A stretch of DNA of 64,000 nt, taken from Blasia pusilla (lineage: Eukaryota). The position numbers were made by a program, and so were the translations under genes. The stretch lies in contig CM114271.1 in assembly GCA_050084515.1 (NCBI GenBank), forward strand, positions 5,208,001-5,272,000. The letters are read 5' to 3'. Under the pieces are notes generated by a model that saw nothing but the letters and a program-made list of their open reading frames with translations, did not search any database and was not told the origin of the DNA. The first letter of the stretch is position 1; each line of letters starts with the position of its first letter. Shown here piece by piece: positions 5,301 to 63,327 of the stretch.

Positions 5301-5789
5301 GGGCTGAGTTATTTCGGAGAGTGATGCCCATGACGTTCGAGAACTTGGCGATTGCACAGCATCGGGATATGTTGAGGTATGCGACTATTCGGGGTGGTGG
5401 TTATCGACCAACTTTCCGGAGGTTTCATCAGGGAGATTATGTCTACTTGTAGCATACGGCACCGACGACGTTGGATGTGACTGCAGGGCGCACTATTCTG
5501 GGAGTGCGTGACATTTTTGCCATCGGGTGTTCTCTTGCTGGAGGGAATGATATGGAAGGACCATGTGCGTAATTGTGCACCATGTCACCTTCCTAATATT
5601 GATGGTACAGTAGATCCGAGCTTAGCAGCAGTTCCTGCAGGCTTGCGTTGTATGTTGTGTGGTTCTGCCCGTGGTGCGGCCATGATGCTAGTCTGTGATG
5701 GGTGTTCGAGAGAATGGCATATGGCATGTTTGACGCCACCTTTCACTAGGGTTTCTCAGGGATGATGGATGTGTCTCAGATGTCCATAG
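2345..5789 (+). pseudogene. pol of element B: DNMT tail, RT (~2820-3730), RNase H (~3773-4138), integrase (~4550-5620), PHD finger (5649-5783)
   Basis: RT: RQMCGDYRPIN, SSLDLRVGYHQL, FLPFGLKNA, FYIDVIVVFS. RNase H: FQLHTDWSMLGLGAVLTQ, YSSYEGECL. Integrase: HEEVGHFG, ADGLAERVVQTVK. PHD: CMLC...LVCDGC...WHMACLTPP...WMCLRC. Multiple stops and frameshifts. Confidence 0.92.
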
Positions 5790-5960
5790 AGTAGGTAGTT
5801 CTACATTCCGACTTGTGTTTGTGACATGGATGCCAAGAAGGCGACTAACGATGGGGCCACATGAGCACCCGGCCTTCTTACTCTTAGCGTCTGAGAGATG
5901 TATGTCATGGTAGGTAGGAATATATGGCTATCTGGAGTTAGAGGGACCTAACCACTAGTT

Positions 5961-5970
5961 AGGGGGGCGA
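5961..5970 (+). promoter_or_regulatory. Polypurine tract (AGGGGGGCGA) of element B
   Basis: Directly precedes repeat B1. The identical 10-mer precedes B1 of element C on the minus strand (49465-49474). Confidence 0.8.
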
Positions 5971-6740
5971 TTGGAGATATTTTGGTACTTCTTGTCTCGT
6001 TGTTTGGATGCCATGAGTTAGCATGGGATCATGCGTGTTTGTGTGTGTGTTCGGTGACAGCGATGTATGTTATGTAACGATGTGTATGCGCACGACAGCT
6101 GTCACGTCTTTTAGGATAGATCGGTGAGATCTAATAGAGCCCCTTCGTGAGTAGTAGAGGACACGCTCAACAAGTCGCGGATGACCTGCTGAAGCCCCGG
6201 AAAACCTGAGAGAGCAGGTTTCCCCTTCGTTTCGGCTCATTTGGAGCCATATTGAGGAACTTACTATTTTAGGTAAGTACCATTTTGAATATATGATCGA
6301 CTTTCTATTTTTGGTAAGTGGTCCTTGACCTCCTACATCAGGTCAAGAGCCAAGAAGGTGACTTGGGAGAATAGATTACCATGGAGAGAGCTTGGGAGAG
6401 GGAAGGGGTATACCTCAAGGAGAGAGAGCTTGAGAGCTCATTCTCTCTTTGTTGAACCTCTTGGCATGAGGCGGCGGAGCTATGGTACCTTGCCTTGTGA
6501 ATGTAACCCAAGCATCTCATTATGAGAGTGAATTTGATTTGACATGAGAGAGAGTGCACAACTTTGAGAGCTATGGTGTGAGATGGTGGAGAGAGAGATT
6601 GGATCTTACTTTATTGGAGATATTTTGGTACTTCTTGTCTCGTTGTTTGGATGCCATGAGTTAGCATGGGATCATGCGTGTTTGTGTATGTGTTTGATGA
6701 CAACGATGTATATTGTGTAGCGATGTGTATGCGCACGACA
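5971..6740 (+). repeat. Split terminal repeats of element B: B1 5971-6097, A2 6100-6613, B2 6614-6740
   Basis: B1 and B2 are 127-bp direct repeats (ttggagatattttgg...gcgcacgaca). A2 is homologous to 44660-45175, the 5' end of element D. Confidence 0.92.
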
Positions 6741-18900: not shown

Positions 18901-19230
18901 TCATTTGGAACAAGGACTCCGAATGCCTCCCGAAATCGAATTCCATTGGTAGGAGTTGTATATCAGTGCCAAAACAGGTCCTTATGGCATAAAATATATG
19001 GCTATTGCCAAGAGGACCTTTCAAATACAAGGAGGATAGCCAATGGGTCAAAGTCCATTTGGAACTAGAGCTTTGAATGTTTGTTTAATTGTCTCTTCAC
19101 ATCCCATTCGGAGTCATTTCCGGAATAGCTCCTTCTGTGGGCTATTCTAGGGCTATCGCCACATTGGACTTTCCAAAATCTTGGAGGATAGGCGGTGGGT
19201 CGAAACTAATTTGGAACTAGAGTTATGAAT
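15985..19230 (+). pseudogene. Possible heavily decayed TIR-NB-ARC(-LRR) resistance-gene remnant
   Basis: Weak motif resemblance only: TIR-like start (FDKVFIV...QIFLDSKKISL), a GLPL-like ECWPLII segment at ~16455 and YSMHD at ~17259, followed by a repeat region. No continuous frame. Confidence 0.22.
18230..19230. repeat. Diverged tandem repeat, ~300-bp period (about 3.3 copies) with ~150-bp internal sub-repeat
   Basis: The motif ggctatcgcc...ttccaaaatcttggaggataggc...tttggaactagag recurs at ~18230, ~18545, ~18840 and ~19145. Confidence 0.8.
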
Positions 19231-25054: not shown

Positions 25055-26060
25055 CTGTAACGTTAGCGAGATTTGCCCAAGCATCTGGCGGAAGGGAATC
25101 GAACTCCATTCCAAGAAGGGGTCCGTCCGTTCGAATAGATCCTCCCAACTGCACTTCCACAGCAGCGATGGCAGCAAGTTCAAGCTCTTTCGCGTCAACC
25201 TTCGCTCTGGGAGCCACGGGCATGGGTCTCTTATAGCCCCGATCCTTTCGGCTGACCAGACTTCCTCTTTTCAAGGAAGCCTTGAAGCCATTCATGTGCA
25301 GATCTTCCGCTTCGCCGAGCTCACTATTTTCCGACTCACTGTCCGTCCTCTCAGTCCGTCTCTCGAAGTTGTGGTGCCCATTGCTATTTTCACCTCCTGG
25401 CGAAAAGTTGGATTGATATGCTCCGTTGGGTATAATCTCCTCCTTTCCGTTTAAAGGCCCTCCCACCCTCTTTCCACTGTTCAATTCCTCCATGAAGTCC
25501 AAATGTGCTTCGCCTCCTTTGTGTCGCATTGCGTAAAATGTCAATTTCACGTCCTCTACGCCATCTTTCCTGTCTTTGTGACGTCGATGCGTGAACCAGA
25601 TCTGCATCTGCTTTTCCGATAAGCCGAGTTGCGCGCTTAGCTTAGCCCGGACTTCCTCAGAAGGATACTTATTTTCTGTGTAAGAAAAGATGGTAATCAG
25701 GAGTCAGCGAAGCCAGCGGCAATCGTAGTAATTGAAGAAGAAATACGACAGAAAATAGAATACGCAGTGCAGAAACCCAGCCACCGGATTGGTCACAACA
25801 AGTAAACCAAAAATCCTGGATCCGATAGGACTAAAAGATTTCATTCACAAAAACCCTCGCGCGACTTGCTTCTAGTAGGGGCTAAGCTTACGTCGTTCCG
25901 ATAGCGAACAACGATGTCCTTCATTTCAGTTCAACTTACCCGCGTACAAACGCTCCAAGAATTCAATCTGAGCAGCACTCTTCTTCCGTCTAGAGGTAGT
26001 CTTCCGCTGAACAGGACTTCCTCCATCCTCATCCATCGAATGCACCTCCATTTGGGACAT
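25055..26060 (-). CDS. Homeobox protein of the RINGLET/RLT (HB-DDT-related) type; exon 1 26060-25940, exon 2 25675-25055; downstream exons unresolved (candidate exon ~24439-24308)
   Basis: ATG in GCCACCATG context. A GT-AG intron joins RRKKSAAQIEFLERLYA|ENKYPSEEVRAKLSAQLGLSEKQMQIWFTHRRHKDRK (homeodomain). The RLT-family motif AIAAVEVQLGGSIRTDGPLLGMEFDSLPPDAW follows, and exon 2 ends at an AG|GTATGT donor. Confidence 0.85.
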
Positions 26061-35834: not shown

Positions 35835-43355
<7,521 letters not shown>

Positions 43356-44659
43356 AATTGAGTTGTCCTCAGAAGACCAAGGGTAAGACTCCTACATATA
43401 AATTGCAGTATGATATTGAGATAAGCACGAATTTGAAGGAGATTCTTGAGGAGAGGATTTTGGATGCAAAAATAGAATTTTCTTTGAGGGAAGTCTTGGG
43501 GATAGCCAAACGTGACTCTTTTGTGACTCATATCACAAAAGAAGAAGACGAAGAGCTTGGCCAAGTTTTTGTGAAGAGACTTAACTTACAAGAAGAAGAG
43601 GCGAGAGTAGGAGAAGCTTTAACAAAACAAGGTGAAGAAAGGAAAAATGGTGATTACTATTCTCGATTCTATTGGGCGCGTACAATGACGGAGGCCAGAG
43701 TTCGACTTGGCTCTATCCAAGAGTCAATTTTGGTTCTTGTTGATCATGGTTCAGAAATCAACATCATGTCGCGTATACGATAAAGGGATATGGCCAATTG
43801 ATATGGAGCATGGATGGATACTATGTGCAGCTAACAATAAAAAAGGTGAACTCTATGATGCTTGTCCAACTATCAAAACCCGTATCGAAGATGTGTTGAT
43901 TGAGCAAAATTTCTTTGTTTAGAATGGATTTGCTTATCTTATGATTCTTGGGCAACCTAACATCACAACATCTAGAATGGAGACCAAAGTGATTGATGAT
44001 GGGTCTCATTATGCCAGTATTAGAAGTCAGGATGAAATGAGATCACTTCATAATCTTCATTCATTATTGTACGGGTAGGTCATGAAAGGAATAGGGAGAA
44101 AGTTGAGAGATGGTCCTATGAAGGTAGGGAAAGCGTTTTCTGATTTTTAGTTAGTATTCCAATAAAGCGGATTCCAATAGGATGCACAAGAAAGAAAGAG
44201 TCTTCCGCTAGTACACGAGGAAGAATCATACATGTTTAGTGTGGGTTTTCTCAATGTTTTTCTTCGTGGTCTAGTAGATTCCAAGTGATGAAAGAAATCA
44301 ATGAGAAGAAAAGATTATTTATGGAAAAAAGAAGAAGGGTTTGTTAAAATGTAAGGTTTTATTAGAAGAAGAGTTTAATAGTGGGATGTATGAAGAAGAA
44401 GGTTTTGGAGAGTCTTGAGGAGGTGTTCGCCCAAATCAACAACAATTCGTTGGGTACAAGGGTGATTACAACTCACTCGCGTGAGTTGTATCAAGAAATA
44501 GCAAGATTTATGGAAGGAGAAGATAGATATCGATCTTTGAAAAAAGGGGATTGGCACGAGTTTGAGGCAGAAGAACATCCCATGGAGGCACGAGTGCACA
44601 CCAAGTACAAGACGATGGCTAAGAAGGTGAAACAAATGGCTACTCAACTACTAGAGGGT
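43356..44659 (+). mobile_element. Fragment of an unrelated, older Ty3/Gypsy gag-protease region, interrupted by element D
   Basis: ILDAKIEFSLREVLGIAK, aspartic protease motif LVDHGSEINIMS, and VHTKYKTMAKKVK; degenerate. Confidence 0.7.
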
Positions 44660-45175
44660 TGTCACATTTTTTAGGATAGATCGGTGAGATCTAGTAGATC
44701 GCCTTTGTGAGTAGTGGAGGACACGCTCACAAGGTCGAGGATGACCTTCTGAGGCTCCGGGAAACTTGAGAGAGTAGATTTCCCCTTTGTTTCGGCTCAT
44801 TTGGAGCCATATTGAGGAACTTACTATTTTAAGCAAGTTCTAATTTGAATAGATGATCGACTTTCTATTTTTGGTAAATGGCCCTTGACCTCTTACATCA
44901 GGTCAAGAGCCAAGGAGGTGACTTGGTAGCATAGGTTACCATGGAGAGAGCTTGGGAGAGGGGAGGGGTATACCTCAAGGAGAGAGAGCTTAAGAGCTTA
45001 TTCTCCCTTTGTTGAACCTCTTCGCATAAGGCGGCGGAGCTATGGTCTTGCTTGCCTTGTGTGTATACCCAAGCCTCTTATTAGGAGAGTGAGTTTGGTT
45101 TGACATTGACAGAGACATGTGAGAGTGCACACATGTGAGAACTATGGTGTTGTGAGAGAGATTGCATGTATTTTA
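44660..45175 (+). repeat. Repeat A1 (5' terminal repeat) of element D
   Basis: Homologous over its length to 6100-6613. Not preceded by repeat B. Followed directly by the self-priming PBS (45175-45190). Confidence 0.88.
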
Positions 45176-48100
45176 CAAAGAGAGAATGAGTGAGTGAGAG
45201 AGCTTCATGGGTGAGCTCGCTGGTTGCTTGATGTTTCGTGCAGGTTGGGGGACCGTGCTCCCCGCTTCATGGCTTATGGGAGTGCTTACCGAAGCAAGAG
45301 CCCTGCGAGTTTGCTGTTTTGCTTTGCTGATTTTTTGTACGGGAGAGTGGCACACGGAAGTGCTGGCCAATTTTCAATAGGAATTGAGTATGGGGGCAGA
45401 TTGCTCCATGCTGGTGCTCTCGAAAGCACTATGTAGCTTGCTGATTTGTGTTCTTATAGATTTTATACTTTCGTAGGGAGAAATCAGCGCGGAAGCGCAA
45501 CCAAATTTTGTGTAGGAGAGAGAGACGTTGGGCTTTACGACAGTCCCCGTTGGTTTTTACTGGAATGTTTGATTCAAAATATTTTTTGACGCTATTGTAG
45601 ATCATGAAGCTCTGCACGTTGTGCAACAAACGGTGTGCAATTTGGAGTTGCGAATTAAAAGTTATGTTCCACCCGTTTAGAGCATGGAACGGTATATTAC
45701 AGCATTTAGAGGGGGCACCCATGGACAATTACCATGAGTTCTCCCATAGATATGCCTAGGAGATTGAGGCATGATGACTCTACTATGACCCACACTATGT
45801 GTCATGGATGGAGCGATTCCCAGATGAGGAGGAGGAGTCAGGAGAGGCTACTTCCTTTTCCACTAGTGATGTTTTAGGAGGGGTCACTCGCACTGGAGCA
45901 GTTGCACCATCTAGTCGCGTTCGTCCCATGCTCAACCCCATGGTTGAGTTCTTCGCTGAGTTGAGGACGAGGGGATACGAATGGAGAAGTTACGGAGCAT
46001 CCACGACTTCCAAAGGTGTCCGGGTGAGAGTTTGCGTGAGGCTTACACTCGCTTGCACCGATTGATCAACGTCACTCAAGGGGTGATAGAGGCTTTGGCT
46101 ATCTAGTCATGGTACGCGATGCTGGACTGGACCTTGCGGACACGGGTGCGAGAGGGGGTGCTTCTTATGAACACCTCCTCTACTTTGAGAGATGTTTTTA
46201 GGACCTCCAAGAACATTGAGCACAACATGGCGAAGGAGAGCGCAACCACCATGGGTTCTGGGCGAGAGCAGTCATGATTGCCTGCGCCACGAATGCAACA
46301 ACGTGGACTCCGAGATAGGTCAACTGTGGCACCACAAGCTCAAGGAGAATACTAGGAGGCCGTGCCACAAAGACTTGCACCTTCATATGCGGCTCAACAA
46401 TAGTTGCCTACGATTACTTGTTGGTCATATGGTGGAGCCCACCATCAGCATGATTGCACTCGTGAGGATCCAGGACGTGTGCCTCAGCATGGAGGAGGAG
46501 ATGGCGCTATTCCAAGAGGTTATCAATGTGACTATTGTGAGAGGTATGGTCACATAGGCGCCAAGTGTTTCAGTTTACACCTTGAGTTACCTCCATACCG
46601 AGGGCCAAAGAGGGCACCAGAGCGAGTAGCGGGTCCGGATGGGGCTAGAGATCGTGCACCTGGTGGTCGTGTGGGGGGACAAGGAGCTGGAGTTTCCCGA
46701 TAGGGTGGTGGAGGTGCCCGTGGATGAGGTGAGGTCCCACCACCTGGACGCATCAAGGGGAATGCTAGGCGCGAGGCTGGGATGGTTGCTCAGAAACATC
46801 AGCTACAGGAGCAGATTGCCGCTATGGCATTGAGGTTACCCGATGCTGGATCCATGGCATCGACATCATATGGAGCAGACAGAGATATGGAGGATCTTGG
46901 TGGGATGTGTGGGGTTGCCTAGATGGAGGCCGCCGCAATTGTGATGCATGGAGTAGCTGCAGAGTCGGATCCACAACGAGGGGAAGCCAGGAAATAGACT
47001 AGGCTTCCTCCGTCTTTCACGTTGTCGAAGGTGATGAGGATCCCATCGATGGGTCCTGATCAGAGTTCCCGGAGAGTTGGTAATGTTATTGCTGTGTAGG
47101 CACGGAGGGCAATGGGAGAAACAAGTGTGATGACTCCTATTGTTGATGCTCAAAAAGAGCACATGTCGAGTACGATGTTGGGGGCGGCCACGATGGTGTA
47201 CCGTGCTCCGCTATTTTTTGCTTCCGATTTTATGACATTGGGAGGTACACCTGCCGAGGTATTCCGGTTGGCCGCTATGCTATGTGAGTGTGGAGTTGGA
47301 GTTCTTGTATCACGTTTCGAGGTGATTGCAGAGGAGGTGATGGGCCTGCCCTTGGAGCTGATGCTAGGGCCATCCACGTCAGATTCATGGCAGGTTACAG
47401 CTGCTAGGATGGCAGAGATGCCTGCTAGACTCGCGGTAGAGCATGCCATGGCTTCTCTTGGTGTTGTGTTGATGGATAACCAGGGAGAGGTCTTCCAATT
47501 AGTGAGTCCCGTAGGTAGAGCTTTTAGTCCGCATCGCGTCTTGTTGGATTCAGGAGCGCAATCCCTAATGTTGGGGAAAGCATCATTCAGAGGATAGGGC
47601 TTGACGAGAGCCGATGTGGAGCGTTGTCCATTCCGGATACAGACATCCTTGGGTGGAGCGAGTACCACACAGTATATCACCCGACAGGAGGTTGTGGTGA
47701 GGATTCTTCGGGGACATCCTACAGATGAGTCCGTGGTGCGAGCCAAGGCGATAGTGACAGATGCAAAATCCTATGACGTCTTGGTTGGTGGAGTAGTGTT
47801 ATACCCGATGGGGTTTTCCTTGGATTATTGGGAGGAGTTAGCGTCCTACAGACCAGGATGGCAGTCAGGTGATGGGCGCCTTAGCTCATTACCCGTTCGA
47901 TTCACAAGTGTAGTGATCGAGCAACGGCCAGGAGAGATGGCGACCTTAGCAACATTTTTCCAATCAAATTGGACTCTTACCTCATGAGAACTTCTCGGGG
48001 AGGTTTGTTATTTGGAGCATTTAGCAGTGCCATCACTTGGCCTAGTGATTTGATTGAGGGACATGTCCATGAAGTGGATACTCCCCTTCCTGATATTTCT

Positions 48101-48325
48101 CTGCAGAGGAGTGTAATGGTAGCCACATCAATCTGTGGAGGAGAGGTGCCGCTTTGGGGCTCAACTAAAGAGCTTCCACCCTTAGCCACTGAGCATGTGC
48201 AGACCGCGTGGAGCGAGATGCTTGCACCAGAGTGTGACAAATCAGAGGAACCCCAAGTAGGCAAGAGTGCTGCTATGACCCCTTTGGACACCACCCCGAT
48301 TATGTGGTGCATCCTAGAGAAGGGT

Positions 48326-48897
48326 ATTCGCGTGTTGGATCTCTTTGGAGGGATCAACATTGGGTTAGCTGCTATTTTGCAGGCTAGAGTGCGCGTGCAA
48401 CAGTATCTATATGTGGAGATTGATGATGTTGCGAGGTGCCCTTCACTTCACCATGTGGCGCAGTTACATATCCATTTTTTTTTACTTGTTTTCTGCGTCC
48501 GCCATTCACGGTTACCAAAGTTCCCTACCGAGGGACATTTCATTGTCGGGGGCGCAGGACTTGGAGCGGAAAGGGACCATAGACTTGGTCATTTCTGGTT
48601 GGCCATGTCAGGGCCAATCGAGTGCTGGACGGGGTAGCGGATTAGCTGACTCTCGATCCAAGTTGTTCAAGGAGATGATGCGGATCTTGAACATTTGCTG
48701 GAGCATCAGTCTCATCTTCTAACATACATTCTATAGAGTATATACCAATTTTGGGCGATTTGAGGTCCCGTGTGGTGACAAGTGCACATCAAGTGCGCGC
48801 ATGGATTGGCTTGGCAATTTTGTTGGATGCGGCCATTGTGGGCTCACAAGCATATCGCCGACATCTTTGGTGGACCAACTTGGTACCACACAAGGTG
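48326..48897 (+). pseudogene. N-terminal half of the DNMT3-like C5 cytosine methyltransferase domain of element D
   Basis: IRVLDLFGGINIGL (motif I), YVEID (II), DLVISGWPCQG (IV, catalytic PC) and AYRRHLWWTNL (VIII); frameshifted. Confidence 0.88.
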
Positions 48898-49464
48898 TGT
48901 CGTGCGAATCCACATCGTCATACAACATACATTGCTGACATACCATACTCACATACATACATAACATAGACGAGAGCATCCACAAACACAAGTGTACCAC
49001 AACAGAAATCCGTGAAAGACCTACTGTCATAAAACACGTATACAATCACATACAATCGAGCCAAACCTACTCCACGATGGGAGAATCTAGGTCGAAGCTT
49101 GCGAGAAACACCATAGCCAAGAGCTCTACTCACTACCAAGGCTAACTCCCAACGCAACAGGCTCAACTCAAAGAACTGACTGTTCTTTGAGTGCACTCCA
49201 CCTTATATCCTCCAACCTAAGAGCGGTCCCTACTGGGAAAGTCAACCCCCAACCCTATGTATGAAACCGCATCTCTACCAAGCCACTACGATCCTACATA
49301 AGGAATGGCCTCTACTAGCACACTATACTCTACGACATAATCCGTATGGTCATGACGGTCGTATGCGAATCCACATCGTCATACAACATACATCGCTGAC
49401 ATACCATACTCACATACATACATAACATAGATGAGAGCATCCACAAACACAAGTGTACCACAAC
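48898..49464 (-). repeat. Split 3' terminal repeats of element C: B2 48898-49003, A2 ~49005-49357, B1 ~49358-49464
   Basis: B1 and B2 are ~106-bp direct repeats. A2 matches 58318-58684. PPT at 49465-49474. Confidence 0.92.
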
Positions 49465-49637
49465 TCGCCCCCCTAACTGGCGGTTAGGTCCCTCTAACTC
49501 CCAGGTAGCCCTATACATCTACTACATGCTATACACCTTCTTGGGTGCCCGAATCATAAGGCCGGGTGCTAGGTTGCCCCATCATTAGTCGCACATCTGT
49601 AATCCATATCATGCAAAGATCAAGTCATCTACCTCTC

Positions 49638-52600
49638 CTAAGTACATCGAGGACAAACCCACCTTCCAATAGGAACAACATCCATACGTGGAGTCAAACA
49701 CATCATGTGCCAACCCCTAGAACACCGATCACACACCAACATACGGGTTGCGTTACCAGCAGATCCACACAACATGCACCTCAAGCTAGCACGGATCATG
49801 GCTAAGCTTGGGTCAACAGTACCATCCACATTTGGAAGATGATATGGCGCACAATTACGCACATGGTCCTTCCAAACAACTCCATCACGACCCTCCAACA
49901 TGAGAACTCCGAAGCTAACACCTCGCGCTTTTCGTAAAATAGTGCGGCGTGCCGTCACATCCAACGTTGTCGGTGCAATCTGCTGCAAATAGACATAGTC
50001 CCCCACATGGAACCTACGAATCGATGGTCGATAACCTCCACCCCGAATGGTTGCATACCGCAACGTATCCCTGTGTTGAGCAATGGCAAGATTCTGAAAG
50101 GCTGTTGGCATAACTCTCCGAAAGAGCTCGCCGGCGAGAACACACTCTCATCCACATCTCTGGGTCATCAAGGTTCACCACCTCACTAGACTCCCGACGA
50201 ATTGCTACTGGCAAGTCTGGATCTCGACCGTATAATAGAAAATAAGGTGAGAAGGAAGCCAAGGATGCTTGGCGACTGAACCTATACCCCATGGCTAATC
50301 ATGGCAACTGAATATCCCAGTCTCTAAGATGCCCCTTCTGTAGGCCATACTTACGCAATGCCCTCTTCACTGTCTGAACCACACGCTCAGCCAAACCATC
50401 CGCCTCTGGATGCTCTTGAGACGTGGTCCGATGATCAATCAACGCCTTGTCACACAAGACCTGAAACTCACCCTGAAACTCTATACCCTGGTCGGTCAGC
50501 ACTTCAGCTGGTGCACCAAAATGACTAAGCACTCTATCAAGAAACGCATACGCCGTTCCCTCACTTGCCTTGTCCGGTAATGCCACCAACTCAATCCACT
50601 TGAGAAGTGCTCCACCATCACCAACACATATCGATGATGTAAATCGATACCAACGGTAACGGTCCCGCAAAGTCCACACTCCAACGGTAACCCAACCCCA
50701 TAATAGGCAAGGGGTGTAATTGTGGTGTACGGGCATTGAATGATGCCCTCACTCGGTCACAAACCATACAACGTGACACCAACTGCTGCACCTGAGTATG
50801 CATGCCACGCCACCAATACTGGCCAAGGAGTAAGCTATATGTACGCTTTACCCCAAAATGTCCCAACTCTTCATGGGCATGTCGCACAATGCGCTCTCTT
50901 TGAGCCAAATATGGCACTACTCGTACTCTACCATCCTCCCACACGCGGAGAATATGTGTTCCCTCCAATCGATACCTCTTAGCACGTTGAAGAACACGGT
51001 CTTGCTCCTTGGCACTCACTATGCCTGGCATCCTACTGGTCCGTAGGAACTCCAACACCAACGCATCATTATGAATATCACGCTGATCCGTACCACCATC
51101 TCCAACCTTAGGATCTGAAGGCTGGCCATCTACCCTCTCACTAGAGTAAGATATCATGTGATCCTCCATACTAGAGTCCACCCCAAACCAACATAAAAAG
51201 GCGGATGCATGCCAACCTGGCACCATCTCCTCATCAACCTCGCCATGCCATCTAGCCCCAGTTGTATCCTCTTGGCTAGTACATGGGTTCCTACTCAACC
51301 CATCGGCATCAAAGTTGGCAACTCCAGGTCTATGTACCACCTAGAAGTCATACTCCTGTAAGATAAGAGCCCACCGTGCGAGCTTCCCTGTAAGCTTGTA
51401 AGACTCCATCAACCATTTGAGCGGCTGGTGATCAGTAACAAGGGTAAACTGTGTGCCAAACAAGTAACACCTAAAGTGTGCCACAACCCACACTACTACC
51501 AAGCACTCTCCCTCATATGAACTATAGCGCGACTCCGCTACATTATTCGAACGACTTGCATAGGCCACCACAAACTCCATGTGCTCATCATCATGTTGTG
51601 TCAACACCGCTCCAAGTCCTAACCTACTCCAATCAGTGTGTAACTGAAATGGGCGTCCTCTGATAGGTCTCCTCAAGATAGGCGTCGCCACCAACTGGGC
51701 CTTAAGCTCCACAAAAGGTCTCTCCTTATCATCTCCCCAATGCCACTCTTGATCTGATTTCAGCAATTGGTTCAAAGGCTTTGCCATAGCACTAAATCCC
51801 TTCACATACCTCCGATAGTAGTTCGCCAATCCCATGAATGCTCAAACTCTACTCACATCTACCGGACGCGGAATAAGTACAATAGCCTCCACCTTTGCTT
51901 CCTAAACTCCCAAACCACCTGGATAGATCACATGACCGAAGTACTCAACATCCTCATGGAAGAACTTACACTTTCTTGGATGCAAACGTAGACCATGAGC
52001 TTTCAACCGCTCAAACACCATCTGCAAATGTATCTGATGCTCCTCCACCGTATTACTGAACACCAAGATATCATCAATGTAACACCGAACAAAATCCAAC
52101 CCTGCTAGGATCCTGTCCATCACTCTCTGAAACTGGGCAAGTGCATTCTTCAACCCAAAGGGTAAGAATTTCCACTGGTACAAACAATCCTTGCCATGAG
52201 AGTTGACACCCCAAACTGCTGTCTTGGCCTTGTCACTCTCCCGAATCGGCAATTGATGGTATCCTGCCCGAAGATCCAAAGTACTGAAAATCTTTGCCTG
52301 TCCCACCACATCAAAGATCTCCTCAGGTGTAGGCATGGCATACCTATCGGCCTTGGTTTGCCGATTGATAGGACGGTAATCTCCACACATCCGCCTATCC
52401 GTGTAGTTGCCATGCATATCCTTTTTAGCAGGCATGACAATGGCTAATGCATACTCTCCATGCGACAACTCCACTAATCCAGCCTCCAAAAGGTCCAACG
52501 TCCTACTCTGAATCAGGTCCCTCTCCATATCACTATATTGGTAGGGACGACGGAAGATTGGCGTATCACTAGCCAAATCAATCCGTATACCGGGTCCAAC

Positions 52601-55600
52601 CAGAGAACCCAACTCCTTCATGCTAAAGGCAAAACAACTCCTATAAGCACGTAGGAACTCTGTAAAGCGTCGTTTCTCACCTCCCGTAAGCTTGGGCCCA
52701 AGTAATGGCTCCCAGGTCTCCTCCACTGGCACACTAGAGGGAGAGGACGATGCCATTGGCTGCTACGAAACCCCCTCACAAGATGGTACACCCTTAGCTA
52801 CACCATCATCTGAGCAAATAACTCCTCCACCAGCATGAGCAACCAACTCCACATGCCCAGCCATAACATCCCATTTACTCCAAGGATGCAAAATACTACT
52901 CTCCTCGCCCCCAGCCGATGCCTCTACCGTCCCGGTAGCCATCGAGCTCATTACAAGGGGTGGAAGACCCACAGACATAGTCCGAAGTTGACGGTGCTCG
53001 GCCATACCAAGACTCAAAATCCAAGTCAAACAATTCAGGTCCATGGCTTGACCCAACACATGACGTCGTGAAGCCTCAGAAATAGAAGCAACCGCTGTCA
53101 CACCAGTAGCAAATCCCATCGCACGCTCTCTTTCATCACCGTTAGGCTCCACCAACGGTCGCACATGAGAATCCCATACAAGCCCCGGACCACCTTCTCT
53201 GTAGGCATGTGACGAGGGAAAACTCACAAATGTGGGTAGTGCCATCCTAGGCTGGCCCACACGGTTCACCACTGCCATGGGTGACCGATCAATAACCCTC
53301 ACCACTTGAGAAAGTCGCCCAGTATCCAAGATACTATCCACGGTAAGGCAAGGATCCCGCTGCACTGCATCATATGCTTGACGTAGACCCTCCCTAGGCA
53401 ACAAGTTTGTCCACCACAAGCGTGGACGATGTGCACGCGAGCCAACTCGCGCTGCATCCAACAATACCGCTGGTCCAATCCAAGACCGCACCTCATGAAC
53501 ACTCGCCATCATCCGGGTCCGAGTGTCACCCAACAATGGAACATTCTCCAGAATGTAAGCTGGAGCACGTGCCAGATAAACCTGAAGATGTCGTAACACC
53601 CGTAACATCTCCCAAAACAATCGAGACCTAGGGTCATGTAATCCCTCACCACGACCTGCACGTGTATGACCCTAACATGGCCATCCAACAATCACCAAAT
53701 CCTTAGGACCAACCCTCTCAAGGTCCTACGCCCCCAACAATGCAATGTGTGATGGCAAAGCACGTTGGTACCCACGAATAGTTGATGGCGGCAACAACTC
53801 AGGATATCTCCGCATCAACTGACCAATATGTCGGGATGAGACTCTATGGGCCGTCTCATCTCGCTCCACATACACGTATCTCCACACAGGAATACCGGCC
53901 TCCAACACTGCAGCCAAACCAGTGCTAATCCCACCAAAGAGATCTAACACACAAATGCCCTCCGGCGGATACTGCCATACAATGGGTGTAGTATCCAAAG
54001 CGGATAACCCAACTGGACCAGAAGTAGGAGTCCGCCGTGGGGCCTCCTCTTCCTTGTGAGGTATAACAGCCTCACACCAAGCCTCCTGCACTAGGCGATC
54101 AGCCTCTTGCCGTAGTGCACCGCCTGAACTCCAAAGTGGCACATCCAACGATGAGGATGCCACTGCTGCAAGAATAGGGACCTTCTCTACCTCCTCATGC
54201 GTAGGAGAATCCATAGCAGAAACATTACCCTCCAAAAAGTCTCGTGGCCAAGTGACTACTCCACTAAAACCAGCCACAGATGCTAACACTGTTGGGGAAG
54301 ACCCTCCTGGTCGAGCCCCAGAAATAAATCTCACAAGAACTTGGCTCATACATCCATCCCCGGACTGCCAACTAGGTCTATAAGACGATGTCTTAGTCCA
54401 GTAATCCATCTGAAAACCCATCGGGTACAATACTGCTCCTCCAACTAGTACATCATACGACTCGGCTGATGTGACTACCGCAGATACTCCCGACCGGGAG
54501 CTATCAGTCGCATGATCTGGTCTCAACTGTACAGAAAACTTCTCCCGTGTCATGAATTGAGACCTATCATTGGCTCCTCCAAGTGATGTTTGAATGTGGA
54601 ATGGGCAAGGCTCAAGCTCTGACCTCCGAATACCTAAACCAATACATGCCGCCTTTCCCAACATCAAAGGTTGGGCACCGCAGTCTAACAAGACTCTATC
54701 TGGTCTATACACTTGTCCTGTAGGACTCACCAATCGGAAGATCCCACTCCGGTTGTCCAACATACATACACCAGGTGTAAGCCTCTCACGATCAATGGCT
54801 GGCCGGGCTGGTAATGCATCCATCTTCGCCGCCGCCGCCGCTAAGTAGCACGGGTACTCAATGCTACACCTGACATAGAGGGTCGCTCCACCACAACACC
54901 CTCATTCACCTCAACACGTATAGCAGTAATACCCCCACGTTCACACAACGTGGCTGCTAGCTGAAATACAGGAGCTAAGTCAACTCCTAAAGCCATCGGC
55001 TCCGTGGCGAAAATAATGGGGATCCTAACACCGAAGTTGCCATCCGCAATCTTGCCGATCGATGTCGCATCCGTGTCTACTACACGCGATGTAGATGCCG
55101 AGTCCCCACTGTCGGCTCAATAGGGCGTGAGGAACCATGGATGGAGTCCTAAGCACCTCAAACAACAAGAATGATGGGAAGCCTAGCCGCCTCCCGGCCT
55201 CACCCCTCTGTGGGTCCAACTCACAAGAGCACCACGTGGCTCGACGCTCGAGTGGCTCCTCTCAACCGCATTGATGCCTCAACTTGTCTTTGCACTCGCC
55301 ATATAAGAGAGATCATCCCCTCCATAAGAGGTGGAAGCCCTCGCTCCCGAACCTGATCTATCCGGATACCAACCATAGTAGCCAACTTATGCTCCAATCT
55401 GCTCAATCCTGGCACCATAGTTGACTTTGTCGTAGTGGTAGGGGTAGCCACCGAGGCTCTCCAACCACTAGTCCACCTCTACCACCCCTACCACCTCTAC
55501 CACCTCGGCCTCTCGGAGCTACTCCACCACGGCCGCGGCCTGATCTCAACTCTGGATGAAGATCAAAGCAACGCTCTCGAGGATGACCTGGTCTCCCGCA

Positions 55601-56805
55601 ATGATCACACTGAGTTGGGGCCGACTGAGGCCCATCCTCCAAAGTCCGTCTCCCATCCTCTTGGGGACAAACCTTCCTAACAGGATCACCTCCACATGTC
55701 CAACATGACTGTCCTTGCTGCCAAGTAGCAAATGAAGGCAATGGTCTCTGCGCAAGTGTCCCTCTAGGACCTGACTGAGGTTGTGTATACCCCCCACGAC
55801 TCCCACTACTACTACCACCACCACTACTACGAGACTGTGAGGTGGGCTACTGAACATGAGAAGTAGTAGTTGTATCCCTACTGAATGCGGATATCACCAC
55901 TCTCTCCTTCACCATGTTAAGCTCAATCTTCTCAGATAGAGCAAACACATGGGTCAATGTGGGTGAATCATCACTCATAAGAGAATCATCACGTACCCTA
56001 CGGCGCAAATCTCTGTCCAAGATCCCATACCAAAATCGGATCGCCTGATCCTCGCCACACCCTCGGTAATCGAAATCAAGCGTCGCATACGAGTGTATGC
56101 CTCACGAAGACTCTCACCAGTCTTTCGCTCAAATTCCTGAAGACTCCTCAACTTCTCCGTCTTCACTCCATGATAGTTCTTCTTCAACCTCTTGAAGAAC
56201 TCTGCAACCGGGCTGAACGATGGTGGGGCACTAGTACCTCCACTAGTACCCCCACTAATACCTCCACTGGTACCCCCACTCTGGCTCGTACTCGTACCAC
56301 TCAACGTTGGGCTGGATGGCATAGTAGGAGCACTACTACCAATACCACCATGGGTGATAGACACATAGCTTGGAGACCAATATTGTCTCCATGCCTCAAT
56401 CTCAGCAACATGGTCCTTCCTAAGCTCATGGTAATCATCCATGGGTGGTCCTTCCAAGTGCTAAAACAACCCCTTCCAAGCCAAGAAGGGTGTAAACAAC
56501 ATCTGCATATCACACCACGTATCAAACTCCTACATGAAGTCCTCCAACTCAATGGTGCCCACTACACCCGAATATCGTCGTGGGACCTTCATGGCCCCAT
56601 ATCCACCGTCCATGTCCCAAATCAATGGAGCTGCAACACTCGATAACAACATAGAAGACTCGGTGTTTGGAACACCCTCGTCCTCCTCTTCATCAACCGT
56701 CGGAAGTGGAAAAGGTAGCCGATACCTAAATCCACTCCGTGTGAAACCACCACTGTCCGCACCACGGTCCCCAACCAGACCACCCGACAGCTCCGTGATG
56801 ACCAA
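49638..56805 (-). pseudogene. gag-pol of element C: Gag (~56805-55450), protease (~54685), DNMT (~53960-53010), RT (~52600-51900), RNase H (~51700-51340), integrase (~50900-49800), PHD (~49780-49640)
   Basis: CDHCGRPGH...C; VLLDCGAQ; VLDLFGG; YILENVP; RRMCGDYRPIN; YIDDILVFS; LHTDWS; HEELGHFG...CMVC; WSVDFAGP; VLTDQGIEF; DGLAER; CMLC...CDRC...WHMMCLTP...WVCPRC. Broken by stops and frameshifts. Confidence 0.93.
53010..53960 (-). pseudogene. DNMT3-like C5 cytosine methyltransferase domain within the polyprotein of element C
   Basis: Motifs in canonical, non-permuted order: ICVLDLFGGISTGL (I), YVERD (II), VIVGWPC*G (IV), YILENV (VI), RAHRPRLWWTNL (VIII), ERERAMGFATGVT (IX), RRHVLGQAM (X). Confidence 0.92.
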
Positions 56806-58304
56806 CGCCGATGCCGCACCACCACCAAATTACCACCACCAAATAACCAAGTGACGTCGATGTCGCTATACTATTCTAGCTCTACTAGCTATGGGTGTAG
56901 GCAACCTAACTTGTCATTACCACAAGAAGCCTCCCACGGTCTACTCGTCATCCCTCTAGCCTCACTACCGGTAGCACACAGGAGTAACACTACTCTGGAA
57001 ATCAGCGTCAACCCTAACAATGGGCGCGCAAGCAAGAAGCACCGATGGAGGGGATCCAAACACAGGAAGTCCAACGACAACCCTCCAATCGCAAATGGAA
57101 ATCAAGGTAACATAATCCACCAAACGTGGTGCCCCCTGAATCCACAAAACCCACCACACAATTTTAACGCAATAGCTACTCCGCCGCGGGTCGATGACAT
57201 GCTAGTCGAACTCGCAGCACCTGAAAATATCACCTGCATGGAGAGGCTACACCGTACTATGCGCTAGAGGAACATCAACCAAAAACCTGAGATGCATAAA
57301 GCGCCTAACACATCTCAAAACAGTACCAAATAAGCTACAACAGTGTGTACACTGGCATAGTTAAGAACTCAGCAGTTAAGCGTCCTCCAGGCAGAATAGC
57401 CCAAACATGGATGACCAGTTATGCAACACTCAAATCCCAAATCCTGCAAAAATTCCCTCACGCCCAAGCAAGCAAGCTTGCTTGCTTGCTCCTTGCTCCT
57501 TACTCCGCCTCTCACGCCCGCTCGCCCCGAGCTACCACGAGTTGCCTCGAAGCCTCAAAACGCCGAGACATGCCCCGTTCGCCACGCTTCGCCATGCTTC
57601 GCTATGGAGAGAGGCCCAACCAGGGCGCCCCCAATGGGATAGGCGTCTCCAACAATGAACGAGTCACCAACCAACGAGCCCCTCCAATCCGCTGTCCACC
57701 ATAGCCAGACCTTGAGCTAGTCCGCAAAATTTCGATCAACAATTACTTCACAAATCCGTGACCAAAATCGAATCTGTTTCAACCAGAATTCAATTGACCA
57801 CCATAGCTATCTCTCCACAAAAAATCAGCTACAACCAAGCTCTGTACTCCGAGCTAAAAATCAGACAAACTTGCTGTCCAGAATCGCAAAAATCGCAAAT
57901 CCGACAGCGCTTCCGCCGAGTTTCATGCACGCAGAAATCCGCACCGCTCCACGCACTCAAGCAGATAGCTTCACATCAGATCACAATACAAGTAGCAACA
58001 GGAATCTCTCACCCGATCTGGATGAACTTCAACAGAGCTTCCGCACTCCAAGCTCTCCACATCAGAAAACCGTCGAACACGAACCAGAATCTTCAATCCT
58101 TGATAACTTCCAACTCCCTTGACAAAATCCAACGATCTAAAGCGCGTTGGAAAGCTCTCAGCAAGGCGCTTCTTTCCTAACCAACCACGCATCAGATTCA
58201 TACCTCCAACATAGGCCACAAGCCACAAACATCCACGGCTGAGTACACAATCAGCCCTAACCAGATCCTACTGATCTACAATCGAAGCTACCATCGATCT
58301 ACTC

Positions 58305-58317
58305 CAGTTCTTTGAGT
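58305..58317 (-). promoter_or_regulatory. Putative self-priming primer-binding site (ACTCAAAGAACTG)
   Basis: Lies immediately 3' of A1 and is the exact reverse complement of CAGTTCTTTGAGT at the predicted TSS (58491-58479). Confidence 0.72.
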
Positions 58318-58684
58318 GAAATCCGTGAAAGACCTACTGTCATAAAACACGTATACAATCACATAAAATCGAGCCAAACCCACTCCAGGATGGGAGAATC
58401 TAGGTCGAAGCTTGCGGGAAACACCATAGCCAAGAGCTCTACTCACTACCAAGGCTAACTCCCAACGCAACTGGCTCAACTCAAAGAACTGAAATTTCTT
58501 TGAGTGCACTCCACCTTATATCCTCCAACCTAAGAGCGGGCCCTACTGGGAAAGTTACCCCCAACTGAGTAACCCCCAACCCTATGTATGAAACCGCATC
58601 TCTACCAAGCCACTACGGTCCTACATAAGGAATGGCCTCTACTAGCACACTATACTCTACGACATAATCCGTATGGTCATGACA
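58318..58684 (-). repeat. Repeat A1 (5' terminal repeat) of element C, with TATA box and predicted TSS
   Basis: Matches A2 (49005-49357) apart from a short indel and substitutions. TATAA at 58520-58516, with a TCAGT initiator-like site ~29 nt downstream (58491). Confidence 0.88.
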
Positions 58685-58688
58685 GGTG

Positions 58689-61600
58689 TTGCGGAGGGCA
58701 TATGCAAGAGTGGAGCGCCCCTATGATTTGTTGGTGGATTCTATATTGGATTCGGGCCGTCGATCAGAGGCAATGAGGCTAGATGATCGACCGCCATTGA
58801 CTGTGGTCAAGAGGATTGGTAGGCCACGGGCAGCCTTTCCCACATTGATGAGTTTTCCCGCTTCCTATGCATTCAAGGAGGCCGGACGTGGCTTGGTTTG
58901 GGATGACCAAGTACATAGGTTTGTGGAGCCCAACACTGATGAGCAAGAGTGAGCGATGGGATTCCCCACAGGAGTGATGGCAGTACCGTCACTATCAAAG
59001 GTATCACGAAGTCATGTCTTGGGTTAGGCGATGGACCTGAACTGCTTGACATAGATTTTGAGCTTAGTAGTAGTTGAGCAACATCGTTTGAGGATGCGAC
59101 AGATCACAGCTATTGCGTTGGTGAGCCCCATGCCTACCGAGATGGTTGAGGCAATGGCTGGGGGCGAGACCCGAGGAGATCGACACACCAAGGATGATCG
59201 AGAGAGACACCCTTAGACTTCTTGGGATGTTTTGCAGGTACGCCAGGAGAAGATAGCCACAAGATTGAGCGTGGTTCCGGGTACCGCATATGGATATGAG
59301 AGTTCTATTGTCCGAGACGGGGTTGCACCATAGCAACCACCGACATCCGCGCCGGAGAGCCCTACTGTAGTCACGATGGAGACTTGGGAGTCAGATATGG
59401 GCCCTAAGTTGACAAGAGGAGAGCGGCGTCGGATATACTGGTTCCTTAGGAGTTATAGGAGTTGTTTTGCATTTAGTATCCATGATTTGGACATGCTGAA
59501 GGATCCAAGGATCCGCATTGAGTTTTCGAGTGACACGTCGATCTTTCGACAACCCTATAGGTACAGTGACATGGAGAGGGCTCTGATTCAAAGTAGGAGC
59601 CATGACTTGGTTGGAGCAAGACTAGTGGAGATGTTGCAAGGAGAGTATGCATCTGCCACTGTCATGCCCGCGAAGAAGGATGTGCATGGCAACTAGACGG
59701 ATAGGCGGATGTGTGGAGATTACTGACCTTTCAATCGGCAGATGAAGTCCGATAGGTATGCCATGCCCACCCTTGAGGAGATCTTTGATGCGATTGGGCA
59801 TGCAAAGATCTTCGGTTCATTGGATTTGCGAGCCGGATACCATCAGCTGCCTATCAGATTGGAGGACAAGCAAAAGACGGCATTTTGGGGCATCGATCCT
59901 CACGGAAAGGATTGTTTGTACCAGTGACGGTTCTTACCATTTGGGTTAAAGAACGCCCCGGCTGAGTTTCAGAGGATCATGGATACAATCTTGGCACGTC
60001 TAGATTTTTCTAGGTGTTAAATTGATGACATCGTAGTCCTTAGAACCACGATTGAGGAGCATGAGCGACATCTAGAGGTGGTGTTTTGACGATTGCAGTT
60101 ACATGGGTTGAAGCTACATTCAGGCAAGTGCAAGTTCTTCTACGACCAGATTGAGTATCTGGGTCATATGAAATACCCAGGGGGCCTTGGTGTGCAGAAA
60201 ATGAAGGTAGAGGCTATTTCACGCATTCCACGCCCTATAGATGTGAGTCGAGTTAGTGCATTCATGGGATTGGCGAACTTCTATCAACGATACGTCAAGG
60301 GTTTTAGCTCGATTGCAAAGCTGTTGACCTTGTTGATCAAGGTGGATCAGGACTGCCACAGGGGGAATGAGCAAGAGAGAGCATTTCAGATGCTCAAGGA
60401 CACATTGATGTCCGCGCCCATATTGAGGAGACCGATCAGGGTGCGTCCTTTCCAATTGCATATCGATTGGAGCATATTAGGGCTTGGAGGCGTGCTCACC
60501 CAGCATGACGAAGATGATAGAGACAGATTGATGTCCGCGCCTATATTGAGGAGACCGATCAGGGGACGTCCTTTCTCATTGCATACATATTGGGGCTTGG
60601 AGCCGTGCTCACCCAGCATGACGATGATGGTAGAGAGTTCGTGGTGGCTTACGCTAGTCGCTCGAACAACGCTGTAGAGGCAAAGTATAGCTCGTATGAG
60701 GATGGGTGCTTGGTTTCGGTGTGGGTTGTCACACATTTCAATTGTTATCTATTCAGCAATCCCTTTACCATCATTGCTGATCATCAACCACTTAAGTGGT
60801 TGATGGAGTCCGACAAGCTTACAGAGAAGCTTGCGAGGTGGGCTCTTTTGTTGTAGGAGTATGAGTTCCAAGTGGTGCATAGACCTGGGACGCTCAACCA
60901 GGATGCAGATGGTTTGAGCCATAACCCATGCTCGAATCAGCGAGATGCGAGTGGAGCTCGTTGGCATGGTGAGAGTGATGAGAAGTTGGTGTCAGGATGG
61001 CATGCGTCAGCCTATTTGGGCTTGTTGGCTATGGAGAGCCAGATTGCTGAGACTTCTATGGCGAGGTCTGATGGAGAGTCCTTAGATCTAGAGGTCGGTG
61101 AGGAGACGACATGTGGCCGAGATATTCACGACGATGGAGTGGTCTTGGAGTACCTACGTACTGGTAGCGACGTGAGAACAGTGGATGCTAGAGAGCATGA
61201 TCGGATCCTACAACAAGCCAGACAGTTTCGATGGGAGGGGACACATGTGTTGCGAGTGTGGGAGGATGGTAGAGTGCATGTAGTGCCTCATCCTTCGCAG
61301 AGAGCACGTTTGGTGTGTCATGCCTATGAGGAGTTGGGTCATTTTGGAGTGAAGCGTACGTACAACTTGCTCCAGATTCAATATTGGTGGTGAGGCATGC
61401 AGAGTGACGTTCAGCAGTTTGTTGCCAGATGCATGGTATGTGATCGAGTCCGAGCATCGTTCAATGCTCCGACTCCACAGTTGCATCCAATTTTGATCAT
61501 GGATTTAGGTTATAGATGGAGTTTGGATTTTGCAAGACCTTTGCCTTTGACAGAGCGCCATAGTCATTATGTGTTGGTGCTGGTCGAGCACTTCTCAAAG

Positions 61601-62073
61601 TGGATAGAGTTGGTTGCATTGCCTGACAAAGCAAGTGAGGGAGTAGTGTATGCCTTCCTAGATCGAGTGCTGAGTCATTACGGCGCACCAACTGAGGTGT
61701 TGATAGACCAGGGTAGAGAGTTCCGCGGGGAGTTTCAAGCCTTGTGTGATCAGGCACTGATCAACCACCGCACTACTTCGCAAGATCATCCTGAGGCGGA
61801 TGGACTAGCGGAGCGGTTTGTGCAGACGTTGAAGAGAGGATTACGCAAGTGTGGATTGCAGAGAGGTCACCTAGGAGATTGGGACCTCCTGTTTGCGTGG
61901 TTGGCGATGGGATGCAGATTCAACAAGCAAGCATCCTTAGCGTCTTTCTCACCGTACTTGCTATTGTATGGCCGAGAGCCAAATTTACTTGCGGACATTC
62001 GTCGAGATGTTGGTGAGGTGTTGAACCTTGATGATCCTGACGTATAGATGCGACCATGTGTTCAGAGGGATGA
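58689..62073 (+). pseudogene. Second half of the element D pol: DNMT C-terminus, RT, RNase H, truncated integrase
   Basis: EPNTDEQE*AMGFPTG...HVLG*AMDLNCL; KSDRYAMPT; SLDLRAGYHQL; HAYEELGHFG; WSLDFARP; DGLAERFVQTLK. Contains a ~120-bp tandem duplication at 60404-60636. Confidence 0.9.
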
Positions 62074-63247: not shown

Positions 63248-63252
63248 TGACG

Positions 63253-63284
<32 letters not shown>

Positions 63285-63327
63285 TGGAGCCTAAATCCAG
63301 CGCCTTAGACCACTCGGCCAAACCGTC
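63248..63327 (-). tRNA. tRNA-Leu (anticodon UAG)
   Basis: GACGGTTTGGCCGAGTGGTCTAAGGCGCTGGATTTAGGCTCCAGTCCGAAAGGGCGTGGGTTCAAATCCCACAGCCGTCA: acceptor stem, D-loop, anticodon arm CTGGA-TTTAGGC-TCCAG, long variable arm, TTC loop. Confidence 0.96.

Follow-up and report, generated by a model that had tools for sequence, protein, structure and literature searches.

Organization of the elements at the locus

We analyzed a 64,000-nt stretch of contig CM114271.1 (GenBank assembly GCA_050084515.1, Blasia pusilla; positions 5,208,001 to 5,272,000), hereafter the window, in which Ty3/Gypsy retrotransposon copies carry a C5 cytosine methyltransferase (DNMT) domain inside their polyprotein. Copy C is a whole element of this type, Gypsy-DNMT3, of 9.8 kb (48898–58684, minus strand, as are all its parts), delimited from stop-to-stop open reading frames (ORFs), Pfam matches and self-comparison of the window. 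In element sense its parts run in the order repeat A1, leader, gag, protease (PR), DNMT, stop codon, reverse transcriptase (RT), RNase H (RH), integrase (INT), PHD finger, a stretch resembling a polypurine tract (PPT), and repeats B1, A2 and B2, and the whole is enclosed by a 4-bp target duplication (48894–48897 and 58685–58688; GGTG on the plus strand, CACC in element sense). Repeat A1, the 5′ terminus (58318–58684), starts TGTCATGACC in element sense. The gag region (55403–56613), whose frames are broken, was located by tblastn with the Marchantia proteins P0004 and P0009; its pieces gave no match in a Pfam scan, and a regex search placed a CCHC zinc knuckle, CDHCGRPGHPRERC, at 55568–55609. 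The end of ORF1 (52763–54901) holds a protease-like part and the DNMT in a single frame: the protease-like LLDCGA lies at 54674–54691, upstream of the methyltransferase, and Asp_protease_2 was matched by Pfam at the equivalent place in the relatives P0020 and P0054. The DNMT3-like domain itself spans 53010–53960, with motifs I to X unpermuted, and ORF1 is closed by a conserved in-frame TAG (52763–52765), followed by CAG CCA.

Downstream of this stop codon lie the reverse transcriptase (51902–52762; RVT_1, PF00078, E 3.9e-31), RNase H (51341–51841; RT_RNaseH, PF17917, E 2.5e-35) and, in two overlapping frames, an integrase (50299–51340) with an H2C2 zinc finger (Integrase_H2C2, PF17921, E 1.3e-16) and a DDE core (rve, PF00665, E 3.1e-7, 31.0 bits with a cut-off of 32.6; in the integrase of copy D, rve reaches 49.7 bits). 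The C-terminal end of the integrase ORF encodes a PHD finger (49644–49778, in ORF piece 49638–50147; PF00628, E 1.1e-10). The order PR-RT-RH-INT, read from the coordinates in copies C and D, is that of Ty3/Gypsy elements. The conserved PPT-like purine-rich stretch was read from the sequence at 49465–49480, just upstream of repeat B1 (49364–49464), which is 98% identical to B2 over 101 nt; repeat A2 (49005–49356) is 93.2% identical to A1 over 366 nt, and B2 (48898–49003), the 3′ terminus, finishes CGACA in element sense. Copy C carries two premature TAG stops (53726–53728 and 53672–53674), the second directly after the catalytic Cys of motif IV, and has frame breaks in RH and INT besides.

Copy C sits, in opposite orientation, in the DNMT of another element, copy D, just past motif VIII. 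The left part of copy D (44660–48897, plus strand), mapped by tblastn with Marchantia proteins and by self-comparison, comprises repeat A1 (44660–45150), gag from 45649, PR at about 47400–47933 and the first half of the DNMT (48017–48897), with a degenerate motif I followed by motifs IV and VI–VIII. Its right part (58689–62073, plus strand) resumes with DNMT motifs IX–X (58689–59258) and the conserved TAG (59331–59333), and continues with RT (59340–60194), RH (60590–60868) and INT (60872–62073); the 3′ repeats of copy D were not found by self-comparison of the window. Copy B (2346–6740, plus strand), of the same subfamily as D, begins within the DNMT, its tail (2346–2681) being followed by the conserved TAG (2682–2684), by RT, RH and INT, and by a PHD finger (5526–5789) and repeats B1 (5970–6097), A2 (6100–6612) and B2 (6613–6740). 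Abutting B is copy C′ (1–2344, minus strand), a sister of C at 90–95.5% identity, of which the gag/PR part and a truncated A1 are present and the remainder lies beyond the window. At the DNA level, by self-comparison of the window, B and D are 84% identical and C is about 67–72% identical to D and B. Every copy in the window is broken: D is spread over three frames, contains stops and is split by C, and B is truncated and contains stops. The locus itself is dead and without function; nothing works here.

Two observations concern copy C′. A 1.1-kb leader stretch of copy C (57036–58132) is missing from it; since RNA depth over this stretch equals that of its neighbors, C′ probably has a deletion there. 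With C in D and C′ in B, the window shows two cases of a C-type element nested antisense within a D-type DNMT. At the C′/B junction, 193 nt of A1 and 342 nt of D-type sequence that are present at the C/D junction are absent, so that the original insertion site is lost, and the identity of 90–95.5% between C and C′ but only 84% between B and D argues against a simple segmental duplication. The double nesting of C-type elements in D-type DNMTs hints at a preferred target.

Repeat layout and integration signatures

The layout A-coding-B-A-B was present in all four elements with an examinable 3′ end, namely C, B, and L006 and L013 of the metagenome copies; it is unlike the LTR-coding-LTR layout of two identical terminal LTRs (long terminal repeats). 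The repeats lie at 1768–2074 and 10378–10963 in L006, and at 2258–2585 and 10655–11223 in L013. Elements start with TGTCA and end with ACA (TG..CA), and 4-bp target duplications flank C (CACC) and L006 (TCTC, both in element sense), the only two with both ends readable. The PPT-like purine run before B1 is conserved, and no primer-binding site was recognized next to A1. As a further observation, the internal B1/A2 junction reads ACA-NN-TGTCA in B, L006 and L013, less clearly in C, and resembles an LTR-LTR circle junction.

PMC5890265 gives an A-coding-B-A-B layout for its DIRS elements and states that the Gypsy element KnitGypsy-Dnmt3 shares it (figure legends 1e and 4c). A DIRS/Ngaro-type assignment is ruled out by the DDE integrase and the 4-bp duplications, and no recombinase family was found among the ORFs scanned with Pfam.

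The integrase C-terminus carries a PHD finger (PF00628), found in C, in B and in 48 full-length relatives. Chromoviruses likewise have a chromatin-reader module at the C-terminus of a Gypsy integrase; theirs is a chromodomain, and the PHD finger at the place where a chromodomain would be expected rules out a chromovirus. The best PDB matches of the finger were CHD4, KMT2C/D, DPF2/3, ATXR5, KDM5A/B, PHF21A and UHRF1, most of whose PHD fingers read unmodified H3 tails. By analogy with these proteins, a reading of unmodified H3 by the element's finger would accord with insertion into silent chromatin and with the mutual nesting of copies, which we note as a lead.

A methyltransferase domain of the DNMT3 type

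All seven motifs of the copy C methyltransferase lie in the frame 52763–54901 and in the order I (DLFGG, 53930–53944), II (YVERD, 53858–53872), IV (GWPC, then the stop, then G, 53669–53686), VI (ENV, 53540–53548), VIII (RPRLWWTN, 53405–53428), IX (ERAMGF, 53111–53128) and X (RRHVLGQ, 53048–53068). A first-pass annotation of this DNA had described these motifs within the polyprotein, between protease and reverse transcriptase, and we recovered every one of them where it had placed them, in one frame. It had named a C5 methyltransferase profile search beforehand as the check on the domain. With the frame read through its premature stops as X for profile and sequence searches, PF00145 matched at E 4.6e-7 and 30.0 bits, above the cut-off of 22, and a fold match to DNMT3, obtained with the model of an intact relative and given below, was found as well. 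The larger unbroken piece of the domain alone scored 17.2 bits for PF00145, below the cut-off; relatives scored 35.6 (P0048), 42.7 (P0054) and 43.0 bits (P0020).

In a phmmer search of PDB sequences with the copy C domain, DNMT3A ranked first among 50 PDB sequences (E 2.7e-11), followed by DNMT3B (E 3e-9) and DNMT3C (E 2.6e-7). The DNMT3A alignment is collinear, with query residues 316–536 on chain positions 7–203 and motifs IX–X on 236–268. Entries of the DRM type scored E 4.8e-5 and 0.033 and were limited to query residues 313–443; a match to one half only is the behavior expected of a permuted enzyme. Behind the DRM entries came M.HaeIII (E 0.006), M.HhaI and DNMT2. An AlphaFold model of the intact relative P0002 (mean pLDDT 69, core mostly above 85), compared with the PDB by Foldseek, had DNMT3A, 3B or 3C in all of its 50 best ranks (E about 5e-17; TM-score 0.77–0.82 on the target). 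The Cys of PCQ in motif IV and the E and N of ENV in motif VI were invariant in 20 of 20 aligned relatives.

Sequence matches and the predicted fold agree that, among solved structures, the nearest relatives of the domain are DNMT3 enzymes and not members of other DNMT classes; the label 'DNMT3-like' applies within this set of structures only. A DRM identity, which the first-pass annotation had also set aside in favor of an unpermuted DNMT3-like enzyme, is ruled out by the unpermuted motif order and by DRM entries aligning to half of the query only. Host DNMT3 enzymes (animal DNMT3A/3B and plant DNMT3) have the same motif order I to X and the same catalytic PC and ENV, and give the best sequence and fold match, although identity between human DNMT3 and the element domain is about 20–23% in structural alignment. 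Unlike the host enzymes, the element DNMT is without PWWP, ADD or the companion domain of plant DNMT3, and is fused to a retroviral-type protease and Gag. Plant DRM, a distant DNMT3 relative present in the same host lineage, has rearranged motif blocks, whereas those of the element are unpermuted.

A conserved stop codon after the methyltransferase

The ORF with gag, PR and DNMT closes in a TAG 63 codons past the domain, and RT follows in the same frame. The codon stands at an identical position in all three window copies that reach it. Its context is TAG CAG CCA in copy C, copies D and B both have TAG CAA CCA, and TAG CAA CCC was found at the same position in all nine metagenome loci that cover the site. 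The annotated Marchantia proteins P0048 and P0004 and the Calypogeia protein P0003 have their C-termini at this position. As the same TAG recurs in C, D and B, in the metagenome loci and at annotated C-termini, it is ancestral and not a product of decay. The leaky UAG of tobacco mosaic virus is followed by the readthrough signal CAR YYA, as given in the consulted part of PMC2754532; this signal fits the context in all three window copies, and the metagenome copies fit its CAR only.

Relatives and the two architectures

A word-index search retrieved 46 proteins of near length together with 23 that were longer. Closest, at 64–77% identity, were a large number of Marchantia polymorpha proteins annotated as 'hypothetical', two Calypogeia fissa proteins and those of three Sphagnum species; a group at about 47–51% came from metagenomes only, Closterium stood at 39%, and a group at 30–38% included Chromochloris zofingiensis. 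Further named relatives were Scenedesmus sp. PABB004 and three Closterium strains, and there was no Klebsormidium protein among the relatives from the homologue search. In an exhaustive search with a profile that included some flanking columns, 617 cluster representatives were found at E ≤1e-30 and 2915 at 1e-10; the best 150 were all element-borne DNMTs. Since the nearest named relatives are all bryophytes, a land-plant host would be plausible from the element proteins themselves. Four 'air metagenome' runs held between one-fifth and one-fourth of the sampled words of the DNMT stretch, which is not evidence of habitat.

Among 224 proteins with a DNMT match, 48 had the architecture RT-RH-DNMT-INT-PHD, 42 PR-DNMT and 58 DNMT alone, the others being partial forms of either architecture; Pfam confirmed RT-RH-DNMT-INT-PHD in three long proteins and a protease ahead of the DNMT in two. 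We built a quick IQ-TREE phylogeny of 154 DNMT domains (LG+G4, unrooted within the family) from 226 starting rows, after removing 26 with less than 85% profile coverage, including copy D with its X residues, and then 46 of the remaining 200 that were more than 72% identical to a retained row. All 92 RH-DNMT-INT rows fell in one supported clade of 117 rows, the other 25 of which are of unknown architecture, while the 26 PR-DNMT rows formed four groups outside it. Copy C belonged to a 12-row clade (SH-aLRT 100) with named members only from Marchantia, Calypogeia and Sphagnum, to which its identity is 74–79%, as against 39% to Closterium. Closterium has the PR-DNMT architecture, as in copy C, but judged from the element itself a streptophyte-alga source of the window would be improbable, given this clade and these identities. 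As far as names go, then, the PR-DNMT-RT form appears to be streptophyte and the RT-RH-DNMT-INT-PHD form chlorophyte.

The chlorophyte elements (Chromochloris zofingiensis Cz02g39130 and the 'pol' of Scenedesmus sp. PABB004) share a homologous DNMT, at about 32–38% identity, the Gypsy backbone and the integrase PHD finger with the elements of the window; they differ in having one long ORF in which RNase H precedes the DNMT and the integrase follows it. Chlorophyte-type relatives P0062, P0069, P0065 and P0094 are single ORFs of 2100–3200 residues with a PHD finger, and the Chromochloris protein has a G-patch match between DNMT and integrase.

Selection on the methyltransferase and decay of the copies

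Between the DNMTs of C and D, compared over 335 codons, pN was 0.28 and pS 0.70; the corresponding values were 0.20 and 0.63 for RT and 0.22 and 0.68 for INT. Synonymous sites are saturated in the C/D comparison (pS about 0.7), and we therefore placed more weight on less diverged pairs formed by copy C and 14 metagenome copies (L001–L014), which were obtained as DNA and compared over the DNMT. In all 14 pairs dS was 0.66–0.83 and omega 0.20–0.33. Among the dead metagenome copies themselves, the pairs listed gave omega 0.42–1.04, and the 102 pairs with dS >0.1 had a median of 0.58, the higher values among closely related dead copies being expected from decay after insertion. The codon comparisons show that the DNMT was under purifying selection while the subfamilies diverged. 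Its presence at the same place in two subfamilies about 67–72% identical supports a heritable component of the element. Summed depth in a DNA run was 37,000–50,000 in DNMT bins and 73,000–119,000 in RT bins (depth here is not a copy number); depths this similar in magnitude indicate that the domain is no rarity in the family.

A side observation concerns the premature stops, which fall at shared alignment positions in independent copies (C and L001–L014), as with the codon after the catalytic Cys in C, L007, L008 and L012. Recurrence in independent copies is the pattern of mutational hot spots.

Transcription

In one RNA-seq run, which carries the species label of the DNA run that best contained the sequence and about 6% of which yielded 4644 reads at ≥88% identity to copy C, 98 of these reads were ≥99% identical to it, 2516 were 95–99%, 1803 were 90–95% and 227 were below 90%. 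All 30 bins of the element were covered, at a depth of 15.7–155.7 for first mates on the plus strand versus 0–12.2 for first mates on the minus strand; in the DNMT bins (52858–54089) the respective depths were 54–78 and 0–0.8. Assuming the usual stranded library chemistry, the transcripts are in sense orientation and derive from sister copies rather than from C.

Two further features were seen in the RNA data. Many molecules start at 58523; the mate bias suggests minus-strand RNA, in which case these starts would mark 3′ ends of the RNA, some 160 nt inside repeat A (about 160 nt from its edge). In 6 RNA reads, and in a contig from a different run, position 50028 is joined to 56527 without GT..AG ends; this has the look of a transcribed derivative that has lost most of gag-pol by internal deletion.

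Comparison with described elements

DNMT-bearing retrotransposons are known, as the first-pass annotation had stated for dinoflagellates and a charophyte, and this precedent is real (de Mendoza et al. 2018, PMC5890265, the source also of the following statements). The Gypsy element KnitGypsy-Dnmt3 of Klebsormidium nitens carries a DNMT3 with conserved catalytic residues, a Ka/Ks <0.2 and DIRS-like repeats. It has in common with the present elements an unpermuted DNMT3-like domain in a Gypsy polyprotein, the A-coding-B-A-B layout and a streptophyte host, and purifying selection is evident in both (Ka/Ks <0.2 there, about 0.2–0.3 here). The hosts differ, being Klebsormidium in one case and, for the nearest relatives found here, bryophytes and Closterium, and so does the description of the coding region, which is called a 'Pol polyprotein ORF' for KnitGypsy-Dnmt3, whereas here the DNMT lies between PR and RT in an ORF1 closed by TAG. 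SymbioDIRS-Dnmt3 of Symbiodinium likewise has a DNMT3-type domain in a retroelement polyprotein and the A-coding-B-A-B layout, but uses a tyrosine recombinase in place of the DDE integrase, H2C2 finger and target duplications of the present elements. The two published elements are treated there as unrelated classes.

Two further sources name 'streptophytes' as hosts of such elements in the parts consulted (PMC12344493 and the preprint 10.64898/2026.05.21.726589, which uses the name 'Gypsy-DNMT3'). Gypsy-DNMT3 elements of streptophytes are thus already in print, and the novelty attached to them by the first-pass annotation was overstated. Its description of the family has otherwise held up: both halves of the DNMT in D and the tail in B, put at 2345, were mapped, with the domain at the same place in two diverged subfamilies; the constancy of that place, pN well below pS and the omega values agree with its view of a heritable component instead of a one-off capture; and all window copies are pseudogenized, with stops or frame breaks in each. 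What our analysis adds is that the hosts are of land-plant type, that the layout is PR-DNMT-stop-RT, and that the elements have a PHD finger, make target duplications and are transcribed as a family. We found no description of DNMT-bearing Gypsy elements in bryophytes or chlorophytes in the literature, although the supplements of PMC5890265 and PMC12344493 may list some.

Interpretation and alternatives

Taken together, the copies in the window are most probably decayed members of a streptophyte Ty3/Gypsy lineage, Gypsy-DNMT3, in which a DNMT3-type de novo methyltransferase is a standing part of the polyprotein. Two other origins of the methyltransferase stretches can be set against this. They might be the remains of a host DNMT3 gene into which retrotransposons had inserted, or a chimera of the assembly, and the DNMT of copy D is indeed split by an insertion; yet the DNMT of copy C shares the protease frame with RT next in frame, all within terminal repeats and a target duplication, and the same order, free of introns, recurs in D, in B, in 9 metagenome loci and in many annotated proteins, which makes this origin extremely improbable, and we rejected it. 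Separate recent captures of a DNMT by C and D would be in keeping with the varying position of the domain in the wider family (RT-RH-DNMT-INT-PHD in chlorophytes), but we consider them very improbable and rejected them too: C and D share both the place of the domain and the stop codon after it, the two DNMTs can be aligned over their whole length, pN being well below pS, and the 92 rows of the other architecture sit in a single supported clade apart from the PR-DNMT type.

A different question is what a DNMT that truly belongs to the element acts on. Its target could be host DNA, the DNA of rival transposons or RNA, or it could serve mainly as a DNA-binding or structural module. RNA methylation has been raised for a LINE-borne DNMT, and the role of the DNMT in each retrotransposon family is called unclear, in the same consulted sections of PMC5890265; moreover, if ORF1 stops at the TAG, there would be plenty of free Gag-PR-DNMT, which would not have to remain associated with the cDNA. 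Against such a target, the catalytic residues are invariant in the 20 aligned relatives, the fold is that of DNA-methylating DNMT3 enzymes, and a retrotransposon DNMT3 gives de novo CG methylation in yeast (PMC5890265). We regard another target as unlikely.

Under the preferred reading, in which Gypsy-DNMT3 carries its methyltransferase as a standing component, live copies would make Gag-PR-DNMT as the major product, with the DNMT as its C-terminal domain, and the conserved TAG would be read through to yield a fusion with RT-RH-INT-PHD as a minor product. The DNMT would then be present in Gag-like amounts, because RT-RH-INT-PHD needs readthrough of the TAG. Gag-PR-DNMT may be packaged with Gag and the DNMT freed by the protease, after which it could methylate the element's new cDNA or its fresh insertion; by analogy with the matched PHD fingers, that of the integrase might steer integration to chromatin with unmodified H3 tails.

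Several results weigh against this reading or parts of it. On the side of the domain, the PF00145 match in copy C is short, covering profile positions 63–120 of 324, and the putative kinship with KnitGypsy-Dnmt3 rests on shared architecture. On the side of readthrough, the third codon after the stop codon position, counted from the TAG, is CCC in the metagenome relatives and not YYA, and conservation of CAR CCN may reflect the encoded Gln-Pro alone. As to activity, the DNMT is interrupted by one or more stops in each of the 14 metagenome copies, and the window holds no intact copy and hence no sign of activity here; only 98 of the 4644 RNA reads are ≥99% identical to C, so that their source is sister copies, which may be open or broken, and the label 'sense' depends on the usual stranded library chemistry. 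Nor are the elements set apart by CpG depletion, observed/expected being 0.61–0.76 in them, no stronger a depletion than in parts of the DNA around them (0.49–0.89).

More tentatively, and with somewhat less than an even chance of being right as a whole, bryophytes and zygnematophytes may harbor a live, transcribed Gypsy lineage in which a DNMT3-type de novo enzyme, produced at Gag-like levels, is the C-terminal domain of Gag-PR before a conserved leaky UAG, the integrase bears a PHD finger, and the integrated A-coding-B-A-B form, with its internal ACA-NN-TGT junction, reflects replication by way of an intermediate like a circle junction that a DDE integrase uses. If this is true, a transposon-encoded DNA methyltransferase would be at work in land plants including Marchantia and may write part of the host methylome, which is so far undescribed for land plants. 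Why retrotransposons carry a host silencing enzyme has been a question since 2018, studied only in Symbiodinium and Klebsormidium, which are hard to manipulate; such elements are common in bryophytes, among them Marchantia polymorpha, a genetically tractable land plant whose methylomes are published, and the question could be taken up there. Annotation is affected too, since bryophyte gene models that look like DNMT3 may belong to transposons instead of to the methylation machinery of the host.

Other features of the window

Apart from the elements, an ORF piece on the minus strand (25047–25703) matches homeobox profiles (PF00046, E 2.9e-12; Homeobox_KN, E 2.1e-6) and covers the latter half of a TALE-type homeodomain. 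It is probably an exon of a host gene, and one homologue search returned no relatives for it. A tRNA-Leu gene (63248–63327, minus strand; 62 bits with Rfam, also called by ARAGORN) lies just past the truncated 3′ side of copy D, and the Rfam search returned nothing besides this one tRNA. Finally, 18201–19247 is a tandem-like array of diverged repeats of about 300–315 bp that are 69–83% identical.

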